DNA of 64,000 nt from an uncultured bacterium (lineage in GTDB: Bacteria; Fidelibacterota; Marinisomatia; Marinisomatales; TCS56): contig CAZVNL010000001.1 of assembly GCA_964628055.1 (NCBI GenBank), positions 106,170-170,169 of the forward strand. The letters are read 5' to 3'. Shown one piece after another: positions 12,260-61,976 of the stretch (positions are counted from its first letter, which is position 1; each line of letters starts with the position of its first letter). The position numbers and the translations under genes were made by a program. The notes under the pieces are model-generated. The model was not told where the DNA came from, did no database searches, and was given only the letters and a program-made list of their open reading frames with translations.

Positions 12260-12268
12260 GAACGGGCT

Positions 12269-18141: not shown

Positions 18142-19523
18142 CACCGTTGCAACCAATGGATATCAAGGACAGACGCGTTACCATTCTGGGGATGGCGAAA
18201 AGTGGTATCGCTGCAGCACAGTTAGCCAAAACCCTGGGAGCGGAAGTTTTCATCAGCGACCAACAATCCTCTCCCGAGCTAAAAGCGCGCTTAGCGAGCC
18301 TCAATAAACAAGATATTCCCGGGGAGATTGGCGGACACAGTAAGCGAATCTTTGAGGCTAATTTGTGGGTTCTCTCCCCAGGTGTACCCAAGGAATCCAA
18401 AGTGGTGCAAGCTGCTCTTCGAAACAATATCGACGTCGTGGGAGAGATCGAATTCGCCAGTTGGTTCACTACCGCGCCTATCTTGGCCGTTACGGGATCC
18501 AACGGCAAAACCACCACCGTTAACATCCTGGCCCGCATGTGCCAAACTTCCGAAGTGCAAGCCACTTTAGCGGGAAATGTGGGCATTCCTTTCTCTCAAA
18601 AAGTACGGGAAGATTTACAGTCACCAGAACCCAAACGGGTGTTTGTCCTGGAAATCTCCAGTTTCCAGATGGAGTTCGTCCGACGCTTTCGCCCACAGGT
18701 GGCCCTTTATCTCAACATCACTCCCGATCATTTAAACCGCCACCCTTCCATGGAGGCTTACGTCCAGGTAAAATTAAATATGGTCCGCAACCAAACAGAC
18801 CGGGACTACCTCGTTTATAATGCTGACGACCCGTTCCTCAGGGAGTGTTTTCGGACCGGCACGGCAAACAGAGTTCCGTTCAGTCTGGGAACGGTTGCCG
18901 GGGCCCCATTTTCCCTGAATGCCACCAAAATTTACACCTCAACCCACGAACCCCTCATTGAACTAAAGGAAATTCTCCTGCCAGGGAAACACAATCTCTC
19001 TAACCTATTAGGGGCGGCAACGGCCGCGCAGGTGTTTGGAATTCCTACGCCACAAATTGCCGACACCATGCGGACTTTCCGGGGTATCCCTCACCGCCTG
19101 GAACCCGCTGGCACCCTTGATGGCATCACCTTTATCAACGACTCCAAGGCTACCAACGTGGAGGCGGTAAAAGTGGCCCTGGCGAGTTACTCCCAACCCA
19201 TTATCCTCATCTTAGGAGGTCTGGATAAAGGGGGCGACTTTGGAGCACTCCTTCCTCATACCAAGCAAAAAGTCAAAGAAGTCTTGGCTATCGGCCAAGC
19301 ACGGGAAAAGATCTCAACGGTATTCAGGGATGCGGTAAGATCGATCGCGGTGACCGATCTTAAAAAAGCCGTTGAGATCGCTCATCGGCACGCTGTTCCT
19401 GGGGACATAATTCTATTGTCCCCAGGATGTGCCAGCTTTGACCAATTCACCAACTACGAAGAACGTGGGGAAGTGTTCAAAACTTTCGTGAAACAGTTAG
19501 GTGCAACCCTTGATGTATCTTAA
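18138..19523 (+). CDS. murD: UDP-N-acetylmuramoylalanine--D-glutamate ligase MurD
   Basis: 461 aa. VTGSNGKTTT P-loop, NDSKATN, and an N-terminal Rossmann segment (ILGMAKSGIAAA). Confidence 0.93.
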   Translation: MTPLQPMDIKDRRVTILGMAKSGIAAAQLAKTLGAEVFISDQQSSPELKARLASLNKQDIPGEIGGHSKRIFEANLWVLSPGVPKESKVVQAALRNNIDVVGEIEFASWFTTAPILAVTGSNGKTTTVNILARMCQTSEVQATLAGNVGIPFSQKVREDLQSPEPKRVFVLEISSFQMEFVRRFRPQVALYLNITPDHLNRHPSMEAYVQVKLNMVRNQTDRDYLVYNADDPFLRECFRTGTANRVPFSLGTVAGAPFSLNATKIYTSTHEPLIELKEILLPGKHNLSNLLGAATAAQVFGIPTPQIADTMRTFRGIPHRLEPAGTLDGITFINDSKATNVEAVKVALASYSQPIILILGGLDKGGDFGALLPHTKQKVKEVLAIGQAREKISTVFRDAVRSIAVTDLKKAVEIAHRHAVPGDIILLSPGCASFDQFTNYEERGEVFKTFVKQLGATLDVS

Positions 19524-20661
19524 CATTACGATCAAGAAGTACGATCGCCTCCTCTTAGGAGCCATTGTCCTGCTGTGCATCGTTGGGACGGTTATGCTCT
19601 TTAGCGCCAGCATTTCCCTTTCCCTCGAAGAGACCCAGGGACAACGGGATATGGTGTACCTCCAGGCCCACCTGAGACGCTTGCTAATCGGGTTTATAGC
19701 CCTGGGCTTTTTTCTCCTGCTGGACTATCGTTATCTAAAACACCTTGCCCTTTACGCCTTGATTGGTACCATCGTTATCCTGATCCTCACCAAAGGAATC
19801 TCGCTCCTCAAGGGACAGAGTTTCCCCGCCCGGTGGCTGTTTGTGGGTCCCTTTTCCATCCAAACCTCTGAGATTGCCCGACTGGCCCTCATCATTTACC
19901 TGGCCAGCTACCTGGACCGGAAACGGGAAGCTATAAAAAACTTTACGGAAGGTTTTTTGCCTCCCGTATTGATCATTGGGTTAGTCGTAGCACTCATCGT
20001 GATCCAACCTGACTTCAGCACGGCTGCTATGATGGCGCTTTTGGGGTTCACCATGCTGTATATTGGGGGAGCTCGGTTCCCCCATCTATTGGCTACCGCC
20101 ACCACCTCCCTGCTGGTAATGGTCCCCGTGATGCTCTTAAAACCCTATCGAATTAAACGCATTCTGTCCTATTTCCGTCCCGATTCGGTGAGCGCCGAAG
20201 ACCTGTACCAGATAAAACAATCTCTCATTAGCATTGGTAATGGTGGCCTGTTTGGCCTGGGGTTGGGGAATAGCCTGGGTAAAGACCTTTTCCTTCCCAC
20301 TCCCCACACAGACTTTATTTTCGCCATCATCGGGGAGGAAACCGGCTTCATCGGGGCCATGTTGGTGATTACCCTCTTCCTCTTCATTTTTCAACGGGGA
20401 ATCAAAATCGCCAAGGATTGCACCGACCCTTTTGGCGTTCTACTGGCCATTGGAATTGTCTTTTCTTTCGTGAGTTACGCTTTCATCAATGCGGCGGTAG
20501 TCACTTCACTGCTACCCACGACGGGCTTGCCCATGCCGTTCATTAGTTACGGGGGTTCAGGCCTGGTAATTAACATGGTAAGCATGGGAATCCTGCTCAA
20601 TATTAGCCAGTCAAAACGGTCCATTGCCCGCCCACCCTGGAGACAACGACAATATGAATGA
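19501..20661 (+). CDS. ftsW: Peptidoglycan glycosyltransferase / lipid II flippase FtsW (SEDS family)
   Basis: 386 aa, about 10 TM helices. QPSEIA-like (QTSEIARLAL), HTDFIFA and PFISYGGS motifs. Confidence 0.93.
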   Translation: MQPLMYLNITIKKYDRLLLGAIVLLCIVGTVMLFSASISLSLEETQGQRDMVYLQAHLRRLLIGFIALGFFLLLDYRYLKHLALYALIGTIVILILTKGISLLKGQSFPARWLFVGPFSIQTSEIARLALIIYLASYLDRKREAIKNFTEGFLPPVLIIGLVVALIVIQPDFSTAAMMALLGFTMLYIGGARFPHLLATATTSLLVMVPVMLLKPYRIKRILSYFRPDSVSAEDLYQIKQSLISIGNGGLFGLGLGNSLGKDLFLPTPHTDFIFAIIGEETGFIGAMLVITLFLFIFQRGIKIAKDCTDPFGVLLAIGIVFSFVSYAFINAAVVTSLLPTTGLPMPFISYGGSGLVINMVSMGILLNISQSKRSIARPPWRQRQYE

Positions 20662-21756
20662 GCAATATCGTATTCTAATCGCGGGTGGTGGAACAGGTGG
20701 ACACCTCTACCCCGCCTTGGCCATCGGAGCAGAACTACAACGACGAGTACCGAACTGTAAAATACACTATGTAGGGACCAGTTTAGGGATCGATGGAACC
20801 ATTTTCGATACACAAGGAGTGGAATACATTCTCCTTCCCATCAAGGGATTCCAACGAGGAGTTTCCTGGAATAGTATCAGAAAAAACGTACTGCTTCCCG
20901 GAAGATTGTTACGCGCCTACCGACAGGCGAAAAAACTTGTGGAGACGTTCCAACCGCAGGTGACGGTGGGAACGGGCGGTTACGCCAGCGCCCTTCCACT
21001 GCACATCGCCACCAAAAAAGGAATCCCGGCCTTGATCCAGGAGCAGAACTCGATTCCCGGTTTAACGACGCGTTGGCTGGCAGGACGGGTAGCGTATGTG
21101 TGCACCAGTTATCCGGAAACAGCCACTTATCTTAAAAAAAAAACTGCCGGCTCATGGGCAACCCGGTGCGACCAGGAATTAATGCAGGGAATCGCATGAG
21201 TGCTGCCCAAGAATTCCAGCTAAACGAGAAGAAAAAAACGCTTTTTATCTTCGGTGGGAGTCAAGGGTCAGCGACCTTAAACCGCTATGCCACACATCTC
21301 GTAGAAACCCTCCCTTCGCAGGACATCCAAATCCTGTGGCAAACGGGAATTCCTCACTATTACCAATACAAACATTTAGAGACGCCCCTGGTTAAAATTT
21401 TACCTTACGTGGAAAACATGCCGGCAGCCTACGCTCTCAGCGACTTAGTGTTATCCCGCGCCGGGGCCCTGACACTCTCGGAGATTACCGTTTGTGGCCG
21501 ACCCAGCGTCCTGATTCCACTCCCCTTTGCAGCAGGAGATCACCAGACTAAAAACGCTCAGTCTCTGGTGACAGCGGGAGCCGCCATGATGATCCCGGAG
21601 AAAGACCTTTCCCCCGCATTGATCACGAGTACCATCGTCGGACTTTTACACGACCAAGAGCGGTTGCAGGAGATGGCCAGGGTCGCCCTTCAACTGGGAA
21701 AACCCCGGGCTACTGAAACCATCGTGGACCTCATTCTGGAATTGGTCGAAAGCTGA
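20654..21756 (+). CDS. murG: UDP-N-acetylglucosamine--N-acetylmuramyl-(pentapeptide) pyrophosphoryl-undecaprenol GlcNAc transferase MurG, frameshifted as assembled
   Basis: The N-terminal half (ORF 20624..21199) carries ILIAGGGTGGHLYPALA. The C-terminal half (ORF 21154..21756) carries GNPVRP, FGGSQGS, RAGALTLSE and GDHQTKNA. The two halves are in different frames and overlap around an A10 run at 21134-21143. One extra A would give ...YLKKKNCRLMGNPVRP... I set the start at ATG 20654, which overlaps the ftsW stop. Confidence 0.9.
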
Positions 21757-23144
21757 TGTTTCGCAAAGTCAACCAGGTTCATTTCGTAGGTATCGGTGGT
21801 ATTGGCATGAGCGGGATCGCCGAACTACTCCTAAACTTGGGGTTCACGATCACCGGGTCTGATCTGCAGAACTCGGAATTAATCGAGAATTTACGACGCA
21901 AAGGCGCCACCATTTACCGAGGTCACCAGGCTTCCCAGATTGCCGGGGCTGATGCTTTGGTGTATTCCAGCGCCGTACGGGAAGACAACCCGGAGCTCAT
22001 TGCGGCCCGGGAACGGGGCCTCCCTGTAATCCGACGAGCGGAAATGTTAGGGGAACTCATCGCTGTTAAAGAAACCAGCATCGGTGTGGGAGGCACTCAC
22101 GGGAAAACTACCACTTCCTCCTTAATCGGGGCGGTACTTTCCAGCGCTGGGCTGGACCCGACGTTAGTCGTGGGGGGACTGGTGAAGAATATCGATACCA
22201 ACTCCCAATTAGGATCCGGGGACATTATCGTCGTGGAAGCAGACGAATTCGATCGCAGTTTCCTGGCTCTCCGGCCTACTATCGCCGTGGTCACGAATAT
22301 CGAATTAGAACACACGGACTGCTACGCCAACTTGGAGGACTTACAAAACGCCTTCACCCAATTCTGCAACTCGGTACCCTTCTACGGCGCGGTTATTACC
22401 TGCCCTGACTCTCCTGGGGTCCAGGAAATTCTGGCCCATATCAAGCGCCCGGTGATCACTTACGGATTTTCCAACCAGGTCGACGTGAGTGCCCGCGATT
22501 TTTCCTATCACGAGAATACATCTCGCTTCACGGCCCTGAATAAAGGGCAGTCCCTGGGTACCGTCAACCTTCAAATCCCCGGTAAGCACAATATTCTCAA
22601 TTCCCTGGCAGCTATTGCCCTGGGACTGGAGATGGGAATTTCCTTCGACAAAATTGCCGCTGGCTTAACGGCATATAGTGGTGTGCGTCGACGCTTCGAG
22701 ATCAAGGGTATTGCCCACGACGTCATGGTGGTGGACGACTATGCTCACCATCCCACGGAGGTAACAGTAACCTTGCGGGCTGCTCGGAGGGGTTGGGACC
22801 GCCGGATCGTGGCCGTATTCCAGCCACACTTGTTCACGCGGACTCGCGACTTCTACCGCGATTTTGCCACAGCTTTCCTGGAATGTGACGTCTTGGTGGT
22901 GACCGATATTTACCCCGCCCGGGAGCGTGAAATTCCCGGAATTACCGGAGAATTGGTGACCCGGGCTGCCAGAACCTCAGGACATAAACAGGTTTATTAC
23001 GTCCCTGAGCTTAAGAACCTCCCCGAGCAGTTAGATGAAATCGTTCGGGGGGGAGATATGATCCTCACTATTGGCGCCGGAAGCATCTGGCGCTATGCCG
23101 AGTCATACTACCAACATTTAAAAGAACGTGAAACATTATCTTGA
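21756..23144 (+). CDS. murC: UDP-N-acetylmuramate--L-alanine ligase MurC
   Basis: 462 aa. HFVGIGGIGMSGIAE, GVGGTHGKTTT and DDYAHHP motifs. Confidence 0.95.
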   Translation: MFRKVNQVHFVGIGGIGMSGIAELLLNLGFTITGSDLQNSELIENLRRKGATIYRGHQASQIAGADALVYSSAVREDNPELIAARERGLPVIRRAEMLGELIAVKETSIGVGGTHGKTTTSSLIGAVLSSAGLDPTLVVGGLVKNIDTNSQLGSGDIIVVEADEFDRSFLALRPTIAVVTNIELEHTDCYANLEDLQNAFTQFCNSVPFYGAVITCPDSPGVQEILAHIKRPVITYGFSNQVDVSARDFSYHENTSRFTALNKGQSLGTVNLQIPGKHNILNSLAAIALGLEMGISFDKIAAGLTAYSGVRRRFEIKGIAHDVMVVDDYAHHPTEVTVTLRAARRGWDRRIVAVFQPHLFTRTRDFYRDFATAFLECDVLVVTDIYPAREREIPGITGELVTRAARTSGHKQVYYVPELKNLPEQLDEIVRGGDMILTIGAGSIWRYAESYYQHLKERETLS

Positions 23145-24066
23145 CGCTAAACTCATAGCCATGTTGCAGTCACAGCTAACTGGTACCTTGCTGGTGGATG
23201 AACCTCTCGCACGCCACACGAGCTATGGCATCGGTGGCCCGGTGGAAGCGTTTATCACCCCCTCCAACCGCGAGGAACTGGCAACCCTCTTGCGTATGGC
23301 TTACGAGCACGCCATCCCTTTTTATGTTGTCGGTTCCGGCTCCAACCTGCTGGTGGCGGACGAAGGTCTTCCTGGCATCGCCATCTGCTTGGAAAAAGTA
23401 TTCAATCGCATAGCGATACAGAGTGGTGAGGTCTATGCCGAGGCGGGAGTAAAACTAAATCATTTAGTCCACCTGACCATGCAACACCATCTCCAAGGAT
23501 TGGAGACCCTGGGAGGTATTCCCGGGACCGTTGGGGGGGCTCTGGTCATGAACGCTGGCGCTTTCGGAACAGAGATATCAAACGTGCTTGTCTCCATAGA
23601 GATTATGACCAACCAGGGCGTTTCCCAGGTGCTATTGTCCAATGAATTGCAGTTCGGTTATCGTCAATCCAGCTTTCGACCCGAGGACATTATTTTAGGG
23701 GCAACGTTGCATCTTACTACGGGTGATCCCCAGGCCATCCAGGCACGGTATCGTGAAGTGAGTCAAAAACGGACACAGACGCAACCGTTAAATAAGCGCT
23801 CCGTGGGCAGCATTTTCAAAAACCCCAAGCCGGGGCTCTCCGCCGGTCAACTAATCGACCAGGCAGGTCTAAAGGGCACCCGGCATGGAGAGGCGGAAAT
23901 ATCGACGCTACACGCCAATTTCTTCATCAACCACGGCCGCGCCCAGGCAGCCGACATCGTGGCCTTAATCCGCCTGGCCCGGGAAAAAGTCCAAAAACAA
24001 TTCGGCATCCACTTAGAATTGGAAGTGACTCCACTGGGCTTCCCCCCAGGAACGTTGGAAGCATGA
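23128..24066 (+). CDS. murB: UDP-N-acetylenolpyruvoylglucosamine reductase MurB
   Basis: 312 aa. FAD-binding domain (HTSYGIGGP, GSGSNLL), GGIPGTVGGA and SIFKNP motifs. The start is ambiguous between GTG 23128 and ATG 23161. Confidence 0.92.
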   Translation: MKHYLDAKLIAMLQSQLTGTLLVDEPLARHTSYGIGGPVEAFITPSNREELATLLRMAYEHAIPFYVVGSGSNLLVADEGLPGIAICLEKVFNRIAIQSGEVYAEAGVKLNHLVHLTMQHHLQGLETLGGIPGTVGGALVMNAGAFGTEISNVLVSIEIMTNQGVSQVLLSNELQFGYRQSSFRPEDIILGATLHLTTGDPQAIQARYREVSQKRTQTQPLNKRSVGSIFKNPKPGLSAGQLIDQAGLKGTRHGEAEISTLHANFFINHGRAQAADIVALIRLAREKVQKQFGIHLELEVTPLGFPPGTLEA

Positions 24067-24821
24067 AAAAGAAACGACCCTCTAGCGGACATGTCCTAAT
24101 TTTTCTCTCCCTCGTGGTTGGAGTAGGAAACTTAATAATTGCCGCAGCGGCGTGGGCGGAATATACCGGTATGACGAAAATCCAGTCGATCAAATTCGCC
24201 GGGGCCCAGCTCCTACCCGCCAAAGAATACGAACGAGCCCTGCAACCCTTACTGGGGGTGCCTTTAAAAGAAATCGAGCTTAACGATGTGCGCCTTTTAT
24301 TGGAGGCCCATCCTTTTGTTAAAGCCGCCCGCGTGAGCCGCCATTACCCCTACACCCTGCGCGTGGAAATTAGCGAACGTCAACCTATCGCCATGCTGAA
24401 TCTAAAACCGATCATGTTCGTGGACAGTAAAGGGGTAATTCTCCCGGATATGGGACTCAGCGACAACCTGTTACTTCCCACCTTATCGGGTTTTAACCCA
24501 ACACCGGAGCTGTATCCCCCGGGGCATGAAACCGGGTCTCAAAAAGTACAGGAAAGCGTGCGTTTACTGAACCAAATCATGGCTGTGGCCCCGGCGCTTT
24601 ACGACAACCTGTCAGAAATCCTCTTGAACAGCCAGGATGAATACGTATTCGTCCTTTCAGAATATCCTACCCATATTGTCATCGGGCGGGAGAATATCTG
24701 GGAGAAAATCAAACTCTTGAATGCTTTTGAGAATACCATTGGTGGGCCACAAAACCTCTCCCAGTATCGTTATCTTGATTTGAGGTACAAGAACCAGATC
24801 GTCGCCAGGGAGCGAGCATGA
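24063..24821 (+). CDS. ftsQ: Cell division protein FtsQ (POTRA domain)
   Basis: 252 aa with an N-terminal TM anchor (LIFLSLVVGVGNLIIAAAAW) and a POTRA-like segment (IQSIKFAGAQLL...). Canonical position, ATGA overlaps on both sides. Confidence 0.8.
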   Translation: MKKKRPSSGHVLIFLSLVVGVGNLIIAAAAWAEYTGMTKIQSIKFAGAQLLPAKEYERALQPLLGVPLKEIELNDVRLLLEAHPFVKAARVSRHYPYTLRVEISERQPIAMLNLKPIMFVDSKGVILPDMGLSDNLLLPTLSGFNPTPELYPPGHETGSQKVQESVRLLNQIMAVAPALYDNLSEILLNSQDEYVFVLSEYPTHIVIGRENIWEKIKLLNAFENTIGGPQNLSQYRYLDLRYKNQIVARERA

Positions 24822-26089
24822 AGCGGCTGAAAAAAACCGTTGAAAAAAATTGTCACGTAGGGCTCGATATTGGCTCCAGTCGTGTGGTATGCGCCATTGT
24901 CACCACCGACGTGGTGGAAAAGCGGATAAAGCTCCTGGGGTTGGGAGAAGCGCATTCAACGGGGATCAAAAAGGGTTGTATCATCCATCGTGACCGAACG
25001 ATTGAAGAAATTGAAAAGGCCCTGGCTGACGCTGAAATGATGGCCAACACAAAAGTGAGCCGTGTCGTGCTGAGCACTACTGGGGAGCATATCCGGGGCA
25101 TTAATACCCAGGGCGCCATTGCCGTCCAGAAGGGTGCCGTGTCGGCGCTACCGGTAGAACACGAAATCACGAAACAGGACGTCCATCGGGTGCTGGAATT
25201 GGCCAAGGCCATCTCCCTCCCTGCCGATCGGGACATCCTCCACGTCATGCCCCAGGAATTCCTCATCGACACCATGGATGGAATCAAAGACCCGGTGGGA
25301 ATGACCGGTCGACGCCTGGAAGCTAAAGTTCACCTCATTACCATGGCGGTGACGGCTGCTAAAAACCTGCTGCACTGTGTAGAAGAGTTAGGACTCGAAG
25401 TAGAGGGGCTGGTTTTTCAAGCCCTGGCTGCTTCCCTCTCGGCCTTAGATGACGATGAAAAAAATTTAGGGGTCGCTTTAGTGGACATTGGCGCTGGCAC
25501 CACCGACGTGGCTATCTATCACGAGGGAGGACTTCGTCACACGGCTGTCTTAGGAATCGGCGCTTCAAGCATAACCAATGACATCGCCGTGATGCTTCAA
25601 ATTGGCTTGGAAGAAGCCGAAAAGATTAAAAAAACCTATGCTTCGGCTAAGGCATCCATGTCCTCCACCGATCTGGAGTTCGAGTTACCGGTGAAAAACG
25701 GAGACCTGGCCCGGAAAATTTCGGAACATGAGTTATCCCGCTACGTGGAAGCCAGGATGATCGAAATTTTGCAACTTATATTGCGGGAAATCTCGCGTGC
25801 TGATATTAAGGAGAAGCTTACTTACGGGGTGGTCTTTACGGGAGGGGGCGCCCAGTTGCGAAACCTCGTTCCGTTGGCTCAGGAAATCCTGAATATGCCC
25901 GTGAGGATAGGCCATCCCAAGGGACTGAGCGGAGCCGTGGACATTGCTTCCACGCCGGAATACGCCACCTGTTTAGGGCTGGCGCAGTGGATAAGCACCT
26001 ATCGGGATTACCTCCCGGTGGCGCTGCAAGAAAAAACTCTCAAACGGGTCGTGGATAAAGTAACGTTTTGGATAAAAGAATTTTTCTAA
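24818..26089 (+). CDS. ftsA: Cell division protein FtsA
   Basis: 423 aa, actin/HSP70 fold. VGLDIGSSRVVCAI, VDIGAGTTDVAIY and VVFTGGGAQL motifs. Confidence 0.95.
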   Translation: MKRLKKTVEKNCHVGLDIGSSRVVCAIVTTDVVEKRIKLLGLGEAHSTGIKKGCIIHRDRTIEEIEKALADAEMMANTKVSRVVLSTTGEHIRGINTQGAIAVQKGAVSALPVEHEITKQDVHRVLELAKAISLPADRDILHVMPQEFLIDTMDGIKDPVGMTGRRLEAKVHLITMAVTAAKNLLHCVEELGLEVEGLVFQALAASLSALDDDEKNLGVALVDIGAGTTDVAIYHEGGLRHTAVLGIGASSITNDIAVMLQIGLEEAEKIKKTYASAKASMSSTDLEFELPVKNGDLARKISEHELSRYVEARMIEILQLILREISRADIKEKLTYGVVFTGGGAQLRNLVPLAQEILNMPVRIGHPKGLSGAVDIASTPEYATCLGLAQWISTYRDYLPVALQEKTLKRVVDKVTFWIKEFF

Positions 26090-26137
26090 GGAAAGAAGGA
26101 CCCACAACCAAGGAAACCAAACTAAAGGAGAACGACT

Positions 26138-27334
26138 ATGTTATTTGAATTCGATACATTAGCAGAACAAAAAGCCAGGTTAAAGGTCATTGGCGTTGGT
26201 GGCGCTGGTGGAAATGCGGTAAATCGTATGATCCAGGCGGGAATGTATGGGGTAGACTTTATAGTGGTTAACACCGATGCCCAGGATCTGGAAAACAATG
26301 CTGCCGAACATAAAATTCAGATCGGAAAAAGCCTGACCAAAGGGTTAGGGGCAGGCGCTCAATCGGACATTGGACGGGAAGCGGTAGAATCGGATGGGGA
26401 AGCCATCCGGGCCATGATGGAAGGGGCTGATATGGTCTTTATCACAGCCGGGATGGGAGGCGGCACCGGAACTGGTGCGGCGCCCTTGGTGGCGGAAATG
26501 TCCCAGGAAATGGATATCCTCACCGTGGGGATTGTTACCCTCCCCTTCCACTTCGAAGGACCGAAACGCATGAACCGGGCGCTGTCGGGTCTGGGAGAAT
26601 TGCGTAAAACTTGTGACACGGTTATTGCCATTCCCAACCAGAAGCTCATGTCCATTGTAGACCACACCACCACCGTGGTGGAGGCCTTCCAGTTAGCGGA
26701 TTCTATCCTGCACCAGGCGGCGAAGGGCATTTCCGATCTCATCAACGTGCATGGATTAATCAATTTAGATTTTGCCGACGTGGAAACGATCATGAAGAAC
26801 ATGGGTGAGGCCATCATGGGAACCGGTCATGCCAGCGGTGAGGAGCGAGCTGTATTAGCGGCGCAACAGGCTATTTCCAGTCCCTTGTTGGATTCGGCTT
26901 CTATCAGTGGTGCCCAGGGAGTGCTGGTTAACATTACCGGTGGCCCTGACCTGACCCTCATGGAAGTGGACGAGGCCACCTCTATTGTTTTCGAGGAAGC
27001 CGGGAAAGATGCCAACATCATCTTCGGGGCGGTCATTGACCCCAATATGGTTGAGGAAATTCGCGTGACCGTCATTGCCACGGGCTTTAATCAACACCTG
27101 TCCACAGAAGAAAACCTGGAAACTAAGGACAGTAAGACCTTCCCCCGGCGGAAGGATACGCGCGTTCTTACGGAACAGTTGAACGTTCCTCTGCACAATC
27201 AGAAAGGGGAGCAAATACCCGCAGTGGAACCAGCCCCAAAATCAAAAACGGCTTTTCGTTTCGACGATACCAAACCGGTGATTTACGGGGACGATTTGGA
27301 AATCCCGGCTTTCATCCGACGGCAACACAAATAA
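26138..27334 (+). CDS. ftsZ: Cell division protein FtsZ
   Basis: 398 aa. GVGGAGGNAVN and the tubulin signature GMGGGTGTGAAP. Conserved C-terminal peptide DDLEIPAFIRRQ. Confidence 0.98.
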   Translation: MLFEFDTLAEQKARLKVIGVGGAGGNAVNRMIQAGMYGVDFIVVNTDAQDLENNAAEHKIQIGKSLTKGLGAGAQSDIGREAVESDGEAIRAMMEGADMVFITAGMGGGTGTGAAPLVAEMSQEMDILTVGIVTLPFHFEGPKRMNRALSGLGELRKTCDTVIAIPNQKLMSIVDHTTTVVEAFQLADSILHQAAKGISDLINVHGLINLDFADVETIMKNMGEAIMGTGHASGEERAVLAAQQAISSPLLDSASISGAQGVLVNITGGPDLTLMEVDEATSIVFEEAGKDANIIFGAVIDPNMVEEIRVTVIATGFNQHLSTEENLETKDSKTFPRRKDTRVLTEQLNVPLHNQKGEQIPAVEPAPKSKTAFRFDDTKPVIYGDDLEIPAFIRRQHK

Positions 27335-53635: not shown

Positions 53636-54727
53636 GTGAAACAAATTGACCGTTACCTTTTGAGACAATTCCTCAGCATCCTCGGGATGGCCTTGCTGGG
53701 GTTCCTCTGTATCTTTTTAATCGTTGACCTTATCGAAAACTTAGACCAATTCATCGATAACCAGGTGCCCTTTCCTATCGTTGCTCAATATTACTTCTAT
53801 ACCTTACCCTGGTTTGTGAATATCGGTTTGCCAATGGGGTTGCTCATCGCTACGGTCTTCAGTTTTGGTCTAATTGTAAAACGCAATGAATGGACGGCTA
53901 TGAAAGCTTCTGGAATCAGTTTGTACCGCATTTCCATCCCCTTGATTCTCATGGGGTTCCTTTTTAGTTACCTTTCGTTCGAATTTGACAATTACCTGGT
54001 AAGTTGGGGAAACCAAAAACGCTCTGAGATCGAAAAAAAATATTTCAAGAGAAGTTCCCGTCACCGCTACCGATCCGTTTACAAGGATGTTTTCCTTCAG
54101 AAGAAAGAGACCACCCACATAGCCATCGGGCGATACAACGTAAATCAAAAGAAGGCGCGGGGTGTGACCATATTGGTCTTCAACCAGGGATTGCTTAGCC
54201 AGCGTATTGACGCCAAGTTCATGACCTATATTGATTCCCTCCAGGCCTGGGCTGCCTCCAACTATTCCATCCGCAAATTCGATGCGACCGGCCAGGAAAT
54301 AGAAGCCAAAATTTCCTCACGGGATTCTTTACTCCAGGTAGATTTTGCTCCCGAGGACATTACTAAACAATCCAAGTTACCGGATGAACTAAGTTACCAA
54401 GAACTTACCGAGCGGATTCAGCAATTACGTGAGAACGGGGTGGACACGACCCGGTGGGAAGTCGTTCGTTATTTTAAGGTTTCTTTTGCCTTCACGAATC
54501 TTATCGTAGTTTTGTTTGGTATTCCTCTGGTGGTTACGCGGCCCCAGGGAGGGTTGACCTTCGGTGCCGGGATGAGCTTCCTGGTGATCTTCGCCTATTA
54601 TGCTTTCATCAAATTTGGGCAATCCCTGGGGTTTAAGGAAATATTAGAACCCTTCACCGCCGCATGGATAGGGAACGTAATTTTTATGTCAGGCGGAATA
54701 CTGCTACTGTTCTTCGCCCGGAAGTGA
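53636..54727 (+). CDS. LptF/LptG family LPS export permease
   Basis: 363 aa, GTG start. IDRYLLRQFL N-terminus, 6 TM helices, and a central periplasmic beta-jellyroll region. Confidence 0.88.
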   Translation: MKQIDRYLLRQFLSILGMALLGFLCIFLIVDLIENLDQFIDNQVPFPIVAQYYFYTLPWFVNIGLPMGLLIATVFSFGLIVKRNEWTAMKASGISLYRISIPLILMGFLFSYLSFEFDNYLVSWGNQKRSEIEKKYFKRSSRHRYRSVYKDVFLQKKETTHIAIGRYNVNQKKARGVTILVFNQGLLSQRIDAKFMTYIDSLQAWAASNYSIRKFDATGQEIEAKISSRDSLLQVDFAPEDITKQSKLPDELSYQELTERIQQLRENGVDTTRWEVVRYFKVSFAFTNLIVVLFGIPLVVTRPQGGLTFGAGMSFLVIFAYYAFIKFGQSLGFKEILEPFTAAWIGNVIFMSGGILLLFFARK

Positions 54728-56218
54728 ACTGCTCTCCTCCGGAGGAGGGGTCGTCGGTTGGACTTCCTCAGGTGTCTGAGGTTGAGTTTCTTCCGGAAGT
54801 GGTGCTGGGGTAGCCTCGATTGGTTCCTCTTTTTCGGTGGCTTTCCGGCTCTTGAAGCTGGTGATGGTTAGTTGGGCGGAGAGGTTTAACCCCTGCATGG
54901 TGTGTATCCAAATCCCGTTCCGGAAGGCAAAACCAAAATCAAAGATTAAAGGTCCTTTATGCACCCCCAGCCCCATGGATAATTCCTTGAAATCGGCCCC
55001 ACCCCAGGCGAATCCAACCCGCAAAGGAATGCTGGGGAACTTCTGATATTCCAACCCAATGGCCCAACGCCAGCCGGAATGGGCGAATAAACGATCCTCA
55101 AACCCGGTCCATAAGTCCGAACTTATTAAAATGTCGTTGGTCTTTTTAGAAATACCCACCCGGAAGATGGCCGGGTAATTCAATTTGAAAATACGGGGCT
55201 TCCCGTTTTTCGTAGTATCATACACAACCTGTTCTTCGGTGGAGTTTCGGTAGAATATGTCACCGGATAGGTTCTGAGCGTTAAGGGAGTCAATGCGGTA
55301 AATATAGCGGATGGCCATACTATCGTTAAGGACTTTTCCACCCCAGGTAAAATGAAAAAGGTCATCATCTGTGCCGTAGATATTATCGCTCCCGTCTAAA
55401 ATATCTTTCATTAAACTGGGCTTATTCCAGGTAATAGACCCAAGGGCATTAATGATGGAAAAACCTACACGCCAACCTTTTATTCTCCGGGTGGTAAACC
55501 CGACGTCCAATCCGAGACCACTGCCACCAATCCCCTGCCGCAGAAAGTAAACACCATCACCATACACCACTTCGTCACCGGAATACAAAGTTGCTCGGCT
55601 GGAATCGGGATCGATCCCTAAATAAAACAATCCCTGGAGATACTTGATGGTCAGCCCCCAGGCAAACTGGTCATAGGGTACCGCAAAAGAGAAACCGTAT
55701 TCGGTGACACCTAACACTTCGTATCCGAGGGTCATATCCAATTCAGGATGCTTGGCATTCCCCTCCAATAGAAATTGCAATATCCCTAAGGGGAAGCGAT
55801 AATTACTGAGATAAACCAGGTTAGAAGTAAAAGCCATATTCCCCGAAGCATAATTGATAACGGGCAGTGGAAGATGAAAGTCCTGGAAGAAGGTCAATCC
55901 ACCGCTGTTCTCGAATTTCTGCAATAATAGGCGTACATCATTGGCCCATAAGGTATCCCCGCTTATGGCATTTAGATTGGCCATGGAGAGGTAGTTTCCC
56001 ACGAATCCAAAATCAAACCCAACCAATTGCATCATGAAGGGTTTATCTTGTTGAAAGGCTAACAGAGCAGGATTATATCCTACCGCAAAGATACCGTCAG
56101 CAATGGTGGTATAAGCCCCAGCCAGGGACACTGCCCGGGGATCACGTTTGGTCTGCCCTTGCAGGAGAACCAGGGAGCCAGCCATTAAAATAACCAGCGA
56201 CAATCTTTTTAAGTTCAC
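54704..56218 (-). CDS. Putative outer-membrane beta-barrel (PorV/FadL/TraF-like) with Pro/Glu-rich C-terminal tail
   Basis: 504 aa. Signal peptide (LVILMAGSLVLLQG|Q), then RAVSLAGAYTTIADGIFAVGYNPALLA (the PorV/FadL-type N-terminal motif). Alternating-hydrophobic strands run throughout, and the barrel appears to end ...LTITSF. A tail of about 50 aa follows: KSRKATEKEEPIEATPAPLPEETQPQTPEEVQPTTPPPEESSS. The family call is tentative. Confidence 0.55.
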   Translation of the reverse strand: MNLKRLSLVILMAGSLVLLQGQTKRDPRAVSLAGAYTTIADGIFAVGYNPALLAFQQDKPFMMQLVGFDFGFVGNYLSMANLNAISGDTLWANDVRLLLQKFENSGGLTFFQDFHLPLPVINYASGNMAFTSNLVYLSNYRFPLGILQFLLEGNAKHPELDMTLGYEVLGVTEYGFSFAVPYDQFAWGLTIKYLQGLFYLGIDPDSSRATLYSGDEVVYGDGVYFLRQGIGGSGLGLDVGFTTRRIKGWRVGFSIINALGSITWNKPSLMKDILDGSDNIYGTDDDLFHFTWGGKVLNDSMAIRYIYRIDSLNAQNLSGDIFYRNSTEEQVVYDTTKNGKPRIFKLNYPAIFRVGISKKTNDILISSDLWTGFEDRLFAHSGWRWAIGLEYQKFPSIPLRVGFAWGGADFKELSMGLGVHKGPLIFDFGFAFRNGIWIHTMQGLNLSAQLTITSFKSRKATEKEEPIEATPAPLPEETQPQTPEEVQPTTPPPEESSSLPGEEQ

Positions 56219-59208
56219 CGTTGGGGTCGTCCTCTTTTTTTGTCACGCAACCAGGTTGAGCCGGAAGATAGGCGACCCGATTGGCGACCGCCACTGGTAA
56301 GGGAAAAATACCAACCGCTAATGTCCTCAACATCGGAATTGGAATCTGAAATACGAAGGCGCACACTATCGGGATTCAGTAAAATCGTGTTAATTCCCGA
56401 GGTGACAATGGGGGTCCATAAAAATGAGTCCACATTGGTATACTGAGTAACAACCTCGATCCAGTCACCCTCGGCGGGATCAGCCCCTGTGGCGATGTGC
56501 AAGTCCACCCTGGAAATTGTTCCGAATGTTTTCCAGCGAATCACGTGTTCTTCACTAACCTTCAGAGTTTCACCCCCATTGGGGTAGAGGATGACAATCT
56601 CATCGGGAGAAGTTTCCAGCATACCCGTGCTGCTGATCCGGAAGATCAGGGAAGACCGGATATCGATATAGTCGGTGACGGATAGGTACACTGGCTGCCG
56701 GGCGGTCATATCAGCATTCCAGGGAGAACCGTTCAAGTGGAAGCGAGGTGCGGTGTAATGTTCCCCGTAATCGGTAATGAGGAATATCCGATTGGTATCG
56801 ATGACACTGCTGTAACTGGTGATGCCCGGTTCAGCAACGGCGCCGGGGTAGCCTACCGTTGTCGTATCACCGTAAAGTGAAAGGGGATCCGGTAATAAAA
56901 CTTTTACTAACGTATCCACGTAGGAGATCACCGTATCAACCACCGCCCCGGCACGGTGCTTGACTAAATAAACAACACCATCAATACAGTCGCTGTAGTC
57001 ATTCATCACCTGGAAAATGTACAAGTTATTCAATCGTAAGGATCCTACCTGGAGGCTATCCAGGGCCGGGTTCAGAGCCACACAGTTGGTAACTACGTAG
57101 AGGCTGTCAGTGGGATCCCAACCCCGTTGGACCACCATGGAATCACGAAACACCCGCAACATCTCCGAGGTGGTGTCCAGGGGGAAAAAGGTATTATTGG
57201 AGAGTAGAATCGCGATCTCCCCCCCCACCGGAATATGATTCGTCACCGTGGTGATCAATTCCGCCCGGTAGAGAGAACTGCGAATGGTATTCCGCGTGTC
57301 ATAGTTCATTTCTTGAAGGGGAGTCTCGTTCACCGAAATGAAGGTCATGGGTTCCATGATCACCTCGAAAGGGGCCACCATGCGGTATTTAAATTTTATG
57401 AACCCTTCCGTTGTGATGGTCCCTCTTCCGGTAATACCAGCCTGAGCATTGACGAACAAATTCACCGGGTTGGCCGAAAGAAGATCTACAATGGTTTGCT
57501 CGCCAGCACCCGTAAGAACGGAATCGGACGGTAAGGAATCGGTAGGCAAAGCATAATAGTAGGTCTTGGTCCCTTCACGGCTGAGCTGAATCAACGTTTT
57601 TGCCGAGTCGTAGTCCGCAATGCCGCTGGTATCGATAGAACTGAGCACTCGCACCCGCACTGTGTCAGCCATTTGGGTTACCCCCACCATCTCGATATCC
57701 AGTTGTACTGGCAGACGAATAGTGTTCATTATTTCAAACTCGATGCGAACGTCGCTGAAGGCCATGCCTTCAAATCCCTGGGGCATTCCCTCAATGGTCT
57801 GTTGCGAGGAGGGGAAGGTAGTGATGATGAGCGCATCCAACGTCTCAAACTCCAGGGTGTTCACGGAAATGGACATGGACAAAGTTCCCAGATCAGAGCC
57901 GTCCAGAGGAATAAATGCCTGACCGGCATGGATAACGGGATTCACATCGATGACCATTTCCGTTAGGGCGCTGTCGGGGCTGATGGGATTGGCAAATTTA
58001 TAGCCGTCAATATCGAATGTGTTATTCACAACACCAACAGTGGGATTGAGAACCGTGTCGATCTTCACCGAATCCTGACCATCAGCAGAGACAAAATTCC
58101 GGAAGTTCATATAAAATCCCAGATCGAAGGGAAAGGTACTCTGAAGATTCAAAACTTTGATTTTATTCTTCAGGAAGGAGTTGGAGACGGTAAAGGTCCC
58201 CTGGTAAATCTTCACGCCCGAGGAATCGCCTTCTTCCATAAAACGCAGGGGAGGTAAACTGACCGGCAGAGGTGTTTCGGCGAGTTGAACCACCGCCGTG
58301 TCAAAACCGGTTATGGTGAAGCCAATTCGCAAGTTTATTTGCACCGAATCACCGGCGGGAATGGTGACGCTGGCCGCTGTGGTTTGGGCTACTTTTAGGG
58401 CCAGAGAGATCCGGATAGCCTCCAACAGAGTGCTGTCCCCCAGGGAAGTAGCAGCAATGTAGGATTCATTCGTCGCTACCGTATTTTGTACATGCCGTGC
58501 TAAGGTGTCAGGATTAGATACCGTGCCAGTAGAGAAGTAAATCTTTACGTTGGTAATGTCGGTGGGGAGACCATTGTTCTTCACGGTGGTTTGAAAGGCG
58601 CTACTATCACCCGTCACATCAGTCTTGATGATAAAACCTTCTACCGAGGTAACAAAGTCCGGCAGTTGGCTGGCATCTACAGGAAGGGGAACCTCGATGT
58701 CCTGCATTTCAGCGGGGATAACAAAGGCGCGGGCGATGGGGTTCCAGATCGTGCTATCTACGACGCGATCACTATTATCCGGGAAGTGGACAATCCCCGT
58801 GGTAGTAAGTAAGCTGTCTCCCAAGGGAATAGTGAAATTAAGGGCAGTATCCACCCGCACCGTGGATAGGTCGGTGGATTGTACCGTTTCGGTTATACCA
58901 GTATCAACGTTGACCTTAACCGTCAGGTAATTGGGATCAATGGCCCGGGGTGGCAGGGTATCTTCAAAGACCAGTTGCATCCCCTGTTTCCCATGAGGAA
59001 ATATGAGGCTACTGTCCACCATTTCCCCCAGGCCGTACCGCTGTTGTACCAGGGGGAACTTGATATCCACAAACCAGGTGGGCATTTTGAAATCGGCAGG
59101 ACTCTGGAAATCACACGCACCAGTGAAGAATAGCATACCCCCCACGGAAAGTACGGTGATCCACTTCCAGAGGTAGGAAATGTCGAGCCTCGGATTATTT
59201 TTCTGCAT
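56215..59208 (-). CDS. Large hypothetical secreted/lipoprotein (997 aa), beta-rich, with C-terminal Ig-like module
   Basis: N-terminus ...ITVLSVGGMLFFTGAC|DFQ (lipobox-like). The body is long, Thr/Ser/Val-rich and low in charge. The C-terminal module is ILYPNGGETLKVSEEHVIRWKTFG...VDLHI...WTP...VRLRISDSNSDVEDISGWYFSL, followed by a basic tail. A 4-nt overlap couples it to the downstream barrel gene. Confidence 0.6.
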   Translation of the reverse strand: MQKNNPRLDISYLWKWITVLSVGGMLFFTGACDFQSPADFKMPTWFVDIKFPLVQQRYGLGEMVDSSLIFPHGKQGMQLVFEDTLPPRAIDPNYLTVKVNVDTGITETVQSTDLSTVRVDTALNFTIPLGDSLLTTTGIVHFPDNSDRVVDSTIWNPIARAFVIPAEMQDIEVPLPVDASQLPDFVTSVEGFIIKTDVTGDSSAFQTTVKNNGLPTDITNVKIYFSTGTVSNPDTLARHVQNTVATNESYIAATSLGDSTLLEAIRISLALKVAQTTAASVTIPAGDSVQINLRIGFTITGFDTAVVQLAETPLPVSLPPLRFMEEGDSSGVKIYQGTFTVSNSFLKNKIKVLNLQSTFPFDLGFYMNFRNFVSADGQDSVKIDTVLNPTVGVVNNTFDIDGYKFANPISPDSALTEMVIDVNPVIHAGQAFIPLDGSDLGTLSMSISVNTLEFETLDALIITTFPSSQQTIEGMPQGFEGMAFSDVRIEFEIMNTIRLPVQLDIEMVGVTQMADTVRVRVLSSIDTSGIADYDSAKTLIQLSREGTKTYYYALPTDSLPSDSVLTGAGEQTIVDLLSANPVNLFVNAQAGITGRGTITTEGFIKFKYRMVAPFEVIMEPMTFISVNETPLQEMNYDTRNTIRSSLYRAELITTVTNHIPVGGEIAILLSNNTFFPLDTTSEMLRVFRDSMVVQRGWDPTDSLYVVTNCVALNPALDSLQVGSLRLNNLYIFQVMNDYSDCIDGVVYLVKHRAGAVVDTVISYVDTLVKVLLPDPLSLYGDTTTVGYPGAVAEPGITSYSSVIDTNRIFLITDYGEHYTAPRFHLNGSPWNADMTARQPVYLSVTDYIDIRSSLIFRISSTGMLETSPDEIVILYPNGGETLKVSEEHVIRWKTFGTISRVDLHIATGADPAEGDWIEVVTQYTNVDSFLWTPIVTSGINTILLNPDSVRLRISDSNSDVEDISGWYFSLTSGGRQSGRLSSGSTWLRDKKRGRPQR

Positions 59209-59346: not shown

Positions 59347-60783
59347 TTAATAGCGATAGTGTTTCGACTTGAAGGGTCCTTCCCGCGAAATACCCATATA
59401 AGCCTCCTGTGCAGGTGTCAGTTCGGTAAGTTGGACACCTAATTTTTTTAGATGAAGTCGGGCGACCTCTTCGTCCAATTTCTTGGGTAAACGATATACG
59501 CCTACCGCGGGTCGTTCTTCGGCCAGGGCAATTTGGGCCAATACCTGGTTGGAGAAGGAAGCCGACATCACAAAACTGGGGTGACCAGTAGCACAACCTA
59601 AATTCACCAGACGTCCTTCAGCTAAGATATAAATTTGATGTCCGTCTGGGAACGTATAGCGATCCACCTGGGGTTTGATATTTTCTTTAACGACCCCTTC
59701 TGCATGGTTCAGAGCTGCCATCTGGATTTCATTATCGAAGTGACCGATATTGCAGACGATGGCCTGGTCTTTCATTTTGGACATATGCTCGAGAGTGATG
59801 ATATCTCGATTACCAGTTGCGGTCACATAAATATCGGCGATGGTGAGTGCCTGTTCCAGGGTAACTACATCAAACCCCTCCATCACAGCCTGCAGGGCGC
59901 AGATGGGATCCACTTCGGTGATGAGCACCCGAGCCCCAAAACCACGCATGGACTGGCTGCATCCCTTCCCTACATCACCATAACCACATATGACCACCAC
60001 TTTCCCGGCAATCATCACGTCCATGGCCCGTTTTATCCCGTCGGCCAGGGACTCCCGGTTCCCATAAATGTTGTCAAATTTTGATTTGGTCACGGAATCG
60101 TTCACATTATAGGCCGCAACCAAAAGGGTTCCCTCCTGGGAGCGCTGTTCCAAACGGTGGACCCCGGTCGTGGTCTCCTCGGACACCCCGATTAACCGAT
60201 CCACAACCTTATGCCAGTGATGAGAATCCTGGGCAAGTACTTTCCGCAACAACGTGTCAATGACCAGTTCTTCTCCTGTGGCTTTACTTTCAGGGATATT
60301 ACCGGTGCGGGCGTAAGTTTCTTCCAATTCATAACCTTGGTGGACTAACAGGGTAGCATCCCCACCGTCATCGACGATTAAGTCCGGCCCTTGCCCACCA
60401 GGGAACGTCAACGCCTGGAGGGTACACCACCAATATTCCTCTAAGGATTCCCCCTTCCAGGCAAAGACCGGTGTACCGGATTGGGCAATGGCGGCGGCGG
60501 CATGGTCCTGCGTTGAAAAAATGTTGCAACTGGCCCAGCGAACCTCCGCCCCGAGAATTTTCAGTGTCTCAATGAGCACTGCCGTTTCTACTGTCATGTG
60601 CAAAGAGCCGGTGATCCGTTTGCCCGTAAGGGGCTTACTTTGACCGTACTTTTCCCTAATGGCTAACAGTCCAGGCATCTCCTTCTCGGCAACGTTAATG
60701 GCTCGTTGTCCGGCTTCCGCTAATTGAATATCACGCACTTTATAAGGTAAATCTTCAATTATTATCTGTTTCTTAGCGTTCAT
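59347..60783 (-). CDS. ahcY: Adenosylhomocysteinase
   Basis: [31 protein letters not shown] site [14 protein letters not shown] and the C-terminal KSKHYRY. I set the start at ATG 60783 (ATGA overlap with the metK stop). The tracked start at 60846 lies inside metK. Confidence 0.95.
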
Positions 60784-61976
60784 TCGGTTTCCGTGACCTT
60801 TCTTATTTCGGCTTGCAATGTATCCACCATATCCACCTTTTCCCAAGTAAATGTTTCCTCTTCACGACCGAAGTGTCCATAAGCAGCGGTGAGGCGATAA
60901 CGGGGAGCTTTTAGCTGCAGGTGGTTAATGATATCCCTGGGTTTCAGGGGGAAAACGTGCCGGGCTATGTTCGTCAGGGTGGCGTCAGACACGGAACCAG
61001 TCCCAAAAGTACGCACATAAAACGACATGGGTTCGGCCACTCCAATACTGTAGGAAAGTTGGACTTCACATTTCTCCGCAATCCCGGCGGCGACAATATT
61101 CTTAGCGATGTAACGAGCCATGTAAGTACCGGAACGATCTACCTTGGAAGGATCTTTCCCAGAGAAAGCACCCCCTCCATGGGGAGCGTAACCTCCATAC
61201 GTGTCCACGATGATCTTGCGGCCCGTTAGACCCGTATCTGCCGCTGGTCCCCCCTCCACAAAACGACCGGTTCCATTCACGATAAACGCGTTGTTGTAGG
61301 GATACCCGGCCTGTTCCAGAACCGGTTTAATCACATGGTTAATAACTTCCTGTTCTACGAAAGCGTGTTCCGTAGCTTCATCCTGAAAACGATCCAGCAT
61401 GTCTTCGTGTTGAGTGGCAATGACCACTTTCTCAACGGCAACGGGTTTCTCGTCGTTGTAGACCACTGTCACCTGGGATTTTCCATCAGGCCGTAGCCAG
61501 GGGAGGATTTTATCCTTGCGTACGTTAGCCAACCGTTCCGTAAGACGGTGCGCTAATTGGATGGGTAGGGGCATATACTCGGGTGTTTCCCGGCAGGCAA
61601 ATCCAAACATGAGACCCTGATCACCAGCTCCCTGCTCCCTCCCTTCCGATTCTTCGACCCCCTGGGCAATCTCCTCACTTTGGGAATGGATTCCGGAGAT
61701 GACCTGCACCTCGTTTGCATCCATGCCACTGGCCATATCATGATAACCAATTTCCTGGAGCGTCTCCTTCACAATCCGTTCCACTTCCACAAATCCCCTT
61801 GTCTTCACTTCTCCCGTCACGACCACCAAACCCTTCGTCACCAAAGTTTCGCAAGCGACGTGAGACTCGGGATCCTGACGTAATAAGTCATCGAGCATTG
61901 CATCAGAAATGGCATCACAAACTTTATCGGGATGACCTTCGGTGACCGACTCGGAAGTGAATAAATAACGTTCCAT
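60780..61976 (-). CDS. metK: S-adenosylmethionine synthase
   Basis: 398 aa. [25 protein letters not shown] and [16 protein letters not shown] motifs. Confidence 0.97.

Follow-up and report, generated by a model that had tools for sequence, protein, structure and literature searches.

A translationally coupled lipoprotein and β-barrel of Marinimicrobia: a probable outer-membrane module with a possible relation to BamGH

Results

Overall Reading of the Gene Pair

The DNA analyzed here, a window of 64,000 nucleotides from an uncultured bacterium of the phylum Marinimicrobia (Fidelibacterota; contig CAZVNL010000001.1, positions 106,170 to 170,169), carries two adjacent genes, designated A and B, that probably constitute a two-gene outer-membrane module, in which A is a large lipoprotein, probably exposed at the surface, and B is a β-barrel that probably holds it. 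The pair is annotated only as 'hypothetical' and 'DUF5723', and is not previously reported from this phylum. The reading that we favor, with somewhat less than even confidence, is that A and B represent a very divergent or analogous BamGH-type accessory of the β-barrel assembly machinery (BAM) of Marinimicrobia. Homology to BamG and BamH could not be demonstrated, and the two proteins are not filed under those families because the defining features open to testing were not found in them. The generic mechanism, in which the barrel would dock the N-terminus of the co-expressed lipoprotein and display it at the surface, is well supported by the anatomy of the two proteins and by characterized analogues from the Fibrobacteres–Chlorobi–Bacteroidetes (FCB) group; the process served by the complex is less certain.

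Organization and Conservation of the Pair

Gene A (positions 56215–59208, minus strand) is an open reading frame (ORF) with an ATG start that encodes a 997-aa lipoprotein, and gene B (54704–56218, minus strand), with a GTG start, encodes a 504-aa outer-membrane β-barrel of the FadL superfamily (DUF5723). The TGA stop codon of A (56217–56215) shares bases with the GTG start codon of B (56218–56216) in a 4-nt GTGA overlap (56215–56218, minus strand); the coordinates, the sizes and the overlap are exactly those given in an earlier note on this DNA. A Shine-Dalgarno-like AAGAGGA (56230–56236, minus strand) lies within the 3' end of A, 11 nt upstream of the GTG of B. The 4-nt overlap couples the translation of the two genes. 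In contrast to B, no Shine-Dalgarno-like site was noted in the sequence read upstream of the ATG of A. The base composition of the region is unremarkable, and a sigma-70 promoter scan, a terminator scan and an Rfam search over it returned nothing informative.

A scan of one genome per GTDB species identified 133 loci with a relative of A, 80 of which were retrieved; all titled loci belong to Marinimicrobia or to unclassified FCB or uncultured genomes. A homologue of B lies directly downstream of A on the same strand in 69 of the 69 loci with at least 700 nt after A, so that the co-occurrence proposed as a check in the earlier note is borne out. Taking the first in-frame start of B, the overlap with the stop of A measures 4 nt at 41 of the 72 loci and 1 nt at another seven (48/72), and an overlapping start is present in about 60 of the 72. 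The arrangement persists where the surroundings have changed. Two distant loci, L081 and L084, which encode the A-like proteins P0289 (925 aa) and P0259 (773 aa), keep the 4-nt overlap with a following DUF5723-like barrel gene; the downstream flank differs in the case of P0289, and the genes on both sides in that of P0259. A barrel-sized gene likewise follows a third A-like protein, P0298 (791 aa). Among the neighbors, a convergent LptF/G-like gene lies no more than 600 nt from B in all 64 loci with enough sequence and is absent in L081 and L084; ahcY, which is less constant, lies upstream of A in 54 of 61. The LptG-like gene is a conserved neighbor of the pair.

The association of A with B is neither a chance adjacency nor an accident of general synteny. 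In every locus examined the pair occupies a single syntenic position among housekeeping genes, and no paralogue group is visible among the listed homologues of A and B. The constant adjacency, the overlapping starts, the 133 species-level genomes and the persistence with altered flanks amount to a conservation like that of a core function. The homologues of A have a median identity of 44% to the window protein, against 59% for both B and LptG and 72% for MetK and AhcY, and the lower value marks A as the fast-evolving partner.

Structure of the Lipoprotein

The N-terminus of A (residues 1–32; 59113–59208, minus strand) consists of a signal peptide, modeled as a helix over residues 8–29, and a lipobox, TGAC. 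All 32 aligned homologues have Cys32 and Asp33, and 27 of them have a lipobox-like pattern, in agreement with the lipoprotein assignment in the earlier note. The segment that follows in the mature protein (residues 32–95; 58924–59115, minus strand) conforms to the consensus CDFQxPxxFEMPTWFxDLxFPLVQ, with C32, D33, F34, P37, F40, P43, T44, W45, D48, P52, L53 and Y58 invariant or nearly so. When conservation is averaged over 20-residue blocks, residues 41–80 score 0.72–0.73 versus a mean of 0.59, among the best values of the protein. The first six positions of the mature window protein include one acidic residue, and those of some homologues include two (CDFE or CDFD).

The AlphaFold2 model of A, computed from a 32-sequence alignment (mean predicted local distance difference test score (pLDDT) 78.3, predicted template modeling score (pTM) 0.44), is nearly all β and shows a string of β-sandwich domains, an immunoglobulin (Ig)-like domain and a disordered basic end. 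The core β-sandwich region (about residues 38–672; 57193–59097, minus strand) is common to the most distant relatives, and in the profile of the family, positions ~14–672 form the conserved core shared with shorter distant relatives of 773–1013 aa. The C-terminal Ig-like module spans residues 870–972 (56293–56601, minus strand), with β-strands over 870–971 in the model; a β-rich body ending in such a module had been predicted from the sequence. The last 25 residues are unconserved. The aligned homologues all retain two cysteines, Cys709 and Cys741, which may form a disulfide bond; such a bond would place A outside the cytoplasm.

No Pfam or NCBIfam model matches A at E ≤ 1, and the Pfam search revealed no recognizable binding or catalytic domain. 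Searches of PDB sequences with the family profiles of A and B yielded nothing meaningful. The 68 homologues of A include only hypothetical proteins of Marinimicrobia/Fidelibacterota where a source is named, and the homologues of both proteins are annotated as Candidatus Marinimicrobia, Neomarinimicrobiota or Fidelibacterota. When the profile of A was searched against 1.84 billion representative proteins, the listing was dominated by Ig-repeat matches, with relatives of A visible down to about 1e-50. The whole-protein profile gave 4417 matches at E ≤ 1e-3, most of those listed being to the C-terminal Ig module: the segment at profile positions ~840–955 recurs 10 to 50 times in proteins as long as 6941 aa. 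In these giant proteins the repeat goes by the Pfam names Kre9_KNH, Big_7 or Reelin_subrepeat-B, none of which matches A itself. One of the giants ends in a type IX secretion system (T9SS) sorting domain (Por_Secre_tail). The occurrence of the repeat in such proteins, one of them with this tail, points to an extracellular location of the Ig module and hence of A.

A search of structural homologues of A with Foldseek gave 1038 matches with E ≤ 10, of which the best 50, reaching E = 0.027, were considered. Those listed are generic jelly-roll or Ig-type multi-β-sandwich proteins at very low template modeling (TM) score (Reelin, CD109/complement, BcsB, PHM and viral capsids; TM < 0.1), except for 4h3w, the sole high-probability match among them (probability 1.0, target TM-score 0.46), an uncharacterized 'putative secreted protein' of Parabacteroides distasonis (BDI_1231). 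An identity as α2-macroglobulin was rejected: no CxEQ thioester motif was seen on reading the sequence, and the TM-score is about 0.08.

Structure of the Barrel

Protein B begins with a signal peptide followed by an N-terminal hatch motif of the FadL/PorV/TraF type. This hatch segment of the mature protein (residues 22–61; 56036–56155, minus strand) reads QxKRDPRxVxLAGAYTTIADG...GYNPALLA, and the blocks covering residues 21–60 have conservation values of 0.79–0.83, among the highest of the protein. Only nine residues, QTKRDPRAV, precede the S-L-A-G motif, and this short N-terminus is highly conserved. AlphaFold2 predicts a β-barrel (pLDDT 77.7, pTM 0.75) that, by our own reading of the DSSP string, has 14 to 16 strands of membrane length, several of them long, and is compatible with either 14 or 16.

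The earlier note had described B as a PorV/FadL-like barrel, and both profile and fold comparisons place it in this superfamily. B matches Pfam DUF5723 (PF18990) at 43.7 bits against a cut-off of 26.8; the match is partial, covering residues 54–211 and positions 2–167 of the 376-position profile. B passes no other curated model, its scores on TraF_2, Toluene_X and NCBIfam PorV_fam all being below threshold. On Toluene_X (PF03349) B scores 13.4 bits, below the cut-off of 29.7, and on PorV_fam (NF033709) 33.7 bits, below the 90-bit cut-off and over residues 373–434 only. Most homologues of B were already annotated with PF18990, under the NCBI name 'DUF5723 family protein'. Hidden Markov model searches had been proposed as a check on the novelty of the pair, and no curated model assigns it to a described system; DUF5723 itself is an uncharacterized FadL/TraF-like barrel family, of which a Brachyspira member has been modeled as a 16-stranded barrel (bioRxiv 10.1101/2025.01.03.631275).

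Foldseek matches of B in the PDB, all with probability 1.00, comprise FadL (3.6e-9), BtBamG (9hiv_F, 1.6e-8), FjBamG (9n2d_B, 1.8e-8), PorV (8gl6_F, 3.6e-8), TodX (5.5e-8) and CymD (1.2e-7). The BamG chains 9hiv_F and 9n2d_B rank fourth and fifth, and the PorV chains 8gl6_F and 6h3i_F are also among the top matches. With FadL, TodX and CymD, its best fold matches (E 3.6e-9 to 1e-7), B has in common the N-terminal hatch motif ending in NPA. B differs from these transporters in the large insertions in its loops, its long disordered C-tail and its coupling to a giant lipoprotein, and the TM-scores are no more than about 0.4–0.5 (0.39–0.45 to FadL).

These resemblances bear on the possibility that B is a FadL-type hydrophobic uptake channel and A a surface lipoprotein that captures its substrate, in a FadL-based analogue of SusCD or BtuBG. 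The top Foldseek matches are indeed transporters (FadL, TodX and CymD), the hatch motif includes NPA, and the N-terminal tail of B is presumably FadL-like in length, judging from the reported ~12-residue extension of BamG beyond FadL, and not extended as in BamG. We nonetheless consider this quite unlikely: the Toluene_X score and the TM-scores to FadL are modest, no genes of fatty-acid or hydrocarbon catabolism are linked to the pair in the window or in the distant loci inspected, and the conserved periplasmic tail motif would be left unexplained. Nor are we aware of another FadL transporter whose gene is translationally coupled to that of a 100-kDa lipoprotein.

The last strand of the barrel ends in LTITSF at residue 455, and pLDDT falls below 50 from residue 459 to residue 504. 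The disordered C-terminal tail (residues 456–504; 54707–54853, minus strand) comprises 49 residues after Phe455, including 11 Pro, 12 Glu and 6 Thr; a Pro/Glu/Thr-rich tail of about 50 residues had been surmised from the sequence. It is laid out as a KSRK basic patch, a Pro-rich PAPLPEE, an acidic spacer and a terminal SLPGEEQ. Across 111 homologues of B the tail measures 7–68 aa (median 36), and 75 of the 111 have a terminal SLP-like motif of the ESLP(D/G)xEEQ type. Across the phylum, the tail combines a barrel-proximal GP(A/S)P(V/I/L)P(E/D) and, at its very end, ESLP(D/N/G)xEEQ(Q), with an acidic spacer between them that varies greatly in length; some lineages are without the tail and retain only 7–12 residues. 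The general topology of outer-membrane proteins would place the tail in the periplasm.

A match of the B family profile to yeast Hsp31/YDR533c in the PDB (E ~1e-3) was judged spurious. It covers residues ~240–375 of B (~55094–55501, minus strand), in a loop region with the motif WNKPSxxKDILxGxDxxYGNxDDL, and 12 residues of this stretch, in the DxxYGNxDDL part, are absent in some lineages.

Comparison with BamG and BamH

One subunit of the BAM of Bacteroidota is BamG, an essential FadL-like barrel of 14 strands that is attached to the back of BamA; another is BamH, a surface lipoprotein whose conserved lipidated N-terminus occupies a groove of BamG and whose body forms an extracellular canopy over the substrate-folding site (Liu et al., Nature 2025, PMC12611786; Silale et al., Nat Microbiol 2025, PMC12578637). 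Compared with FadL, BamG is lengthened at both ends by conserved segments. The N-terminal extension, ~12 residues beyond FadL, threads through the lateral opening and touches BamA, and the last residues of the C-tail touch BamD (PMC12611786; PMC12578637). BamG and BamH have been reported in six of the seven other FCB phyla, and their locus tags are adjacent in most FCB genomes outside Bacteroidia (Liu et al. 2025, Supplementary Table 1, PMC12611786). Neighboring tags, from the genera Ignavibacterium, Salinibacter, Fibrobacter, Gemmatimonas, Caldithrix, Gracilimonas and Chitinophaga, include IALB_1455/1454, SRU_0789/0790, FSU_1156/1157, GAU_1453/1452, Cabys_4206/4207 and Cpin_1839/1840, and the paralogue pairs BT_1785/1786 of Bacteroides and Fjoh_1686/1685 of Flavobacterium are adjacent as well (PMC12611786). 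Marinimicrobia are not in the table of Liu et al. (PMC12611786). A literature search found no later work that extends the BamG/BamH survey and none on the FCB BamG/BamH locus tags.

The earlier note could name no partnership that the pair matched. This stands with regard to family assignment; the closest known arrangement is nevertheless that of BamH and BamG, published in October 2025, whose organization is alike even though every sequence-based membership test was negative. As in most FCB genomes outside Bacteroidia, the genes for the lipoprotein and the FadL-like barrel are adjacent, in an organism that also belongs to FCB, and as with BamGH the pair occurs in every genome of the lineage examined. 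The mature N-termini of both A and B are among their best conserved parts, the lipoprotein diverges faster than the barrel, and the barrel extends past its last strand, all in common with the BamGH pair. A shares with BamH the lipoprotein nature, an acidic N-terminus (Asp33) and a conserved N-terminal peptide; both it and FjBamH, which starts CDKDF, begin with Cys-Asp and are all-β. The BamGH-type reading is favored because of the precedent of adjacent bamG and bamH genes in FCB, the single housekeeping locus, the conservation of both N-termini, the continuation of the barrel protein beyond its last strand and the asymmetry in evolutionary rate.

Sequence comparisons were made with FjBamG (390 aa) and FjBamH (517 aa), taken from the SEQRES records of the supplementary PDB model of the paper, and structural ones with the solved structures 9N2D, in which BamH is chain C, 9HJ3 and 9HIV. 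In control searches FjBamH scored 230 bits on Pfam DUF4270 and 640 bits on NCBIfam BamH_fj (NF053686), and FjBamG 460.9 bits on NCBIfam BamG (NF053685; cut-off 250).

Several observations weigh against a BamGH assignment. At E ≤ 1, B does not match NF053685, nor does A match NF053686 or DUF4270. Alignment with hhalign gave a probability of 0.03% for the A family versus FjBamH and 3.6% versus 17 Flavobacterium BamH sequences, and of 0.1% for the B family versus FjBamG and 0.5% versus the three BamG sequences Fj, Bt and Pg. No BamH chain appears among the best 50 Foldseek matches of A, and the Foldseek comparison of B does not separate BamG from FadL, TodX and PorV. Whereas FjBamG, BtBamG and PgBamG have ~25 residues, including SPY(S/T)xxGxG, before their S-M-[AG]-G motif, the nine residues that precede the hatch motif in B leave it without the BamG-specific N-terminal extension. 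A is about twice as long as BamH (997 aa versus roughly 520 aa in FjBamH, 517 in the mature form), and the sole family that B passes is DUF5723. In P. gingivalis, a DUF5723 protein (Q7MT24) and BamG (PG_0448) are listed separately and may be different genes. Neither bamA nor bamD lies near the A/B pair. The C-tails differ too: that of B is a 49-residue Pro/Glu-rich disordered segment with its own terminal motif, unrelated in sequence to the WF(x)K(x)K tail of BamG, which is ~11 residues long.

For BamH the sequence tests are weak, because neither FjBamH nor its profile retrieves BtBamH or PgBamH from the PDB; FjBamG, by comparison, finds BtBamG at 1e-37 with HMMER. The FjBamH search returned Flavobacterium sequences only, at 58% identity or more, and the resulting profile is narrow. 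DUF4270, the BamH family, has been described as confined to Bacteroidetes (Silale preprint), so that the BamH assignments of Liu et al. across FCB were presumably not made through DUF4270 similarity.

The same negative membership tests speak for a different arrangement, in which A is a surface lipoprotein with B as its dedicated anchor, a docking or export platform like PorV, PorQ or SprF that operates independently of BAM, and the pair provides a coat, an adhesin or a substrate-binding protein specific to Marinimicrobia. Barrels of the FadL type with a surface protein as their partner recur in FCB, and PorV is among the top fold matches of B; B is DUF5723-like and does not have the N-terminal extension of BamG, and A has an Ig module of the adhesin type. 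We regard this as possible and rather less likely than an even chance would make it. Pairs devoted to adhesion or nutrient capture usually have a patchy distribution, occur in several copies and are variable, whereas the A/B locus is single, syntenic and embedded among housekeeping genes, with no paralogue group among the listed homologues, and A has no recognizable binding or catalytic domain. Equally tentative is a distinct Marinimicrobia machine outside BAM, in which a DUF5723-type barrel, possibly 16-stranded, would export and/or anchor a 100-kDa surface lipoprotein and be wired to a periplasmic partner through the tail motifs GPxPxPE and terminal ESLPDxEEQ. If true, this would be a new kind of module for the display or export of surface lipoproteins, and would give DUF5723 its first function.

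Relation to Other Barrel-Based Systems

The presence of a PorU-like peptidase in the window had led the earlier note to consider, as speculation, a link of the pair to the T9SS. The PorU is genuine (5130–8888, plus strand; NF033707 at 590 bits, cut-off 420; Peptidase_C25; C-terminal FlgD_ig/Por_Secre_tail domain). No porV lies next to it, and the genes that follow are maf and a rodZ-like gene. With a true PorU sortase in the organism, a weak partial PorV_fam match in B and PorV among its fold matches, B might be a PorV/PorQ/PorP-like shuttle and A its cargo. We hold this to be very unlikely. The PorV_fam score is far below its cut-off, A has a lipoprotein signal peptide, no T9SS C-terminal sorting domain and unconserved last 25 residues, porU is 45 kb away, and no T9SS gene lies beside the pair in the loci inspected for gene content.

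A likeness to SprF/PorP-adhesin or SusCD partnerships, also suggested, did not hold, since neither A nor B matches PorP/SprF, TonB-dependent receptor/SusC, SusD or type-B T9SS sorting domain models of Pfam or NCBIfam at E ≤ 1. PorV/PorQ and PorP/SprF are FadL-like barrels that hold surface proteins and are often encoded beside their partner; unlike them, B has as its partner a lipoprotein of the Sec/signal peptidase II type without a T9SS sorting domain. With Slam, the type XI secretion system of Proteobacteria, in which a barrel gene lies beside the gene for its dependent surface lipoprotein, the pair shares the concept alone, as B has neither a Slam-family match nor an N-terminal tetratricopeptide repeat domain. 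Identities as SusCD and as Slam were rejected by the membership tests. An identity as LptD/LptE was also rejected, the convergent lptG being on the other strand and lost in distant lineages.

Genomic Context

The neighbors of the pair are housekeeping genes. Convergent with B is a gene for an LptG-like permease of lipopolysaccharide export (53636–54727, plus strand; 256.7 bits on Pfam LptF_LptG and 204.5 bits on TIGR04408 LptG), whose 3' end overlaps that of B by 24 nt, and which is followed by a Na/alanine symporter gene. The convergence of the LptG-like gene with B may reflect a shared theme of outer-membrane biogenesis or a frozen gene order, both being possible. Upstream of A, on the same strand, are ahcY and metK (59347–60846 and 60780–61976, minus strand). 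With the TTG start assigned to it mechanically, ahcY would share 67 nt with the end of metK, and homologues suggest that the true start is a downstream ATG (MNAKKQ...).

Four ORFs of the window reach at least 650 aa, encoding an aconitase, PorU, a penicillin-binding protein and A; bamA is not present in the window. Positions 11037–27334 (plus strand) hold rsmH, the gene for the penicillin-binding protein and then a long series of co-directional ORFs that looks like a division/cell-wall (dcw) cluster, of which only rsmH and the penicillin-binding protein gene were checked. The rest of the window is core chromosome with no sign of mobile DNA.

Discussion

The BamGH-type reading of the pair can be laid out as a sequence of steps. 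A would leave the cytoplasm through the Sec pathway, receive its lipid at Cys32 and then move to the outer membrane, while translational coupling would have B made in a fixed ratio with A. By analogy to BamH, the conserved N-terminal peptide of A would dock on B, which would then hold the ~100-kDa β-sandwich protein at the cell surface. The pair might bolt onto BamA and help to assemble complex outer-membrane proteins, as BamGH does in Bacteroidota and other FCB phyla, and the periplasmic tail of B, with its SLPxEEQ motif, might extend to a partner in the periplasm, in the way that BamG contacts BamD through its C-tail.

It was not until 2025 that BamG and BamH were described as an extracellular extension of BAM, in Bacteroidota. 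Marinimicrobia have a cultured representative, Fidelibacter multiformis, in which the role of the pair could be tested. If A and B are the BamGH of Marinimicrobia, the lipoprotein can double in size and lose all recognizable similarity while the pairing and the lipoprotein-on-barrel logic are kept, and the barrel could dispense with the N-terminal extension that is thought to touch BamA. If the pair is not related to BAM, it would still constitute a conserved, probably important outer-membrane module in one of the most abundant uncultured marine phyla, and would offer a first functional handle on DUF5723.

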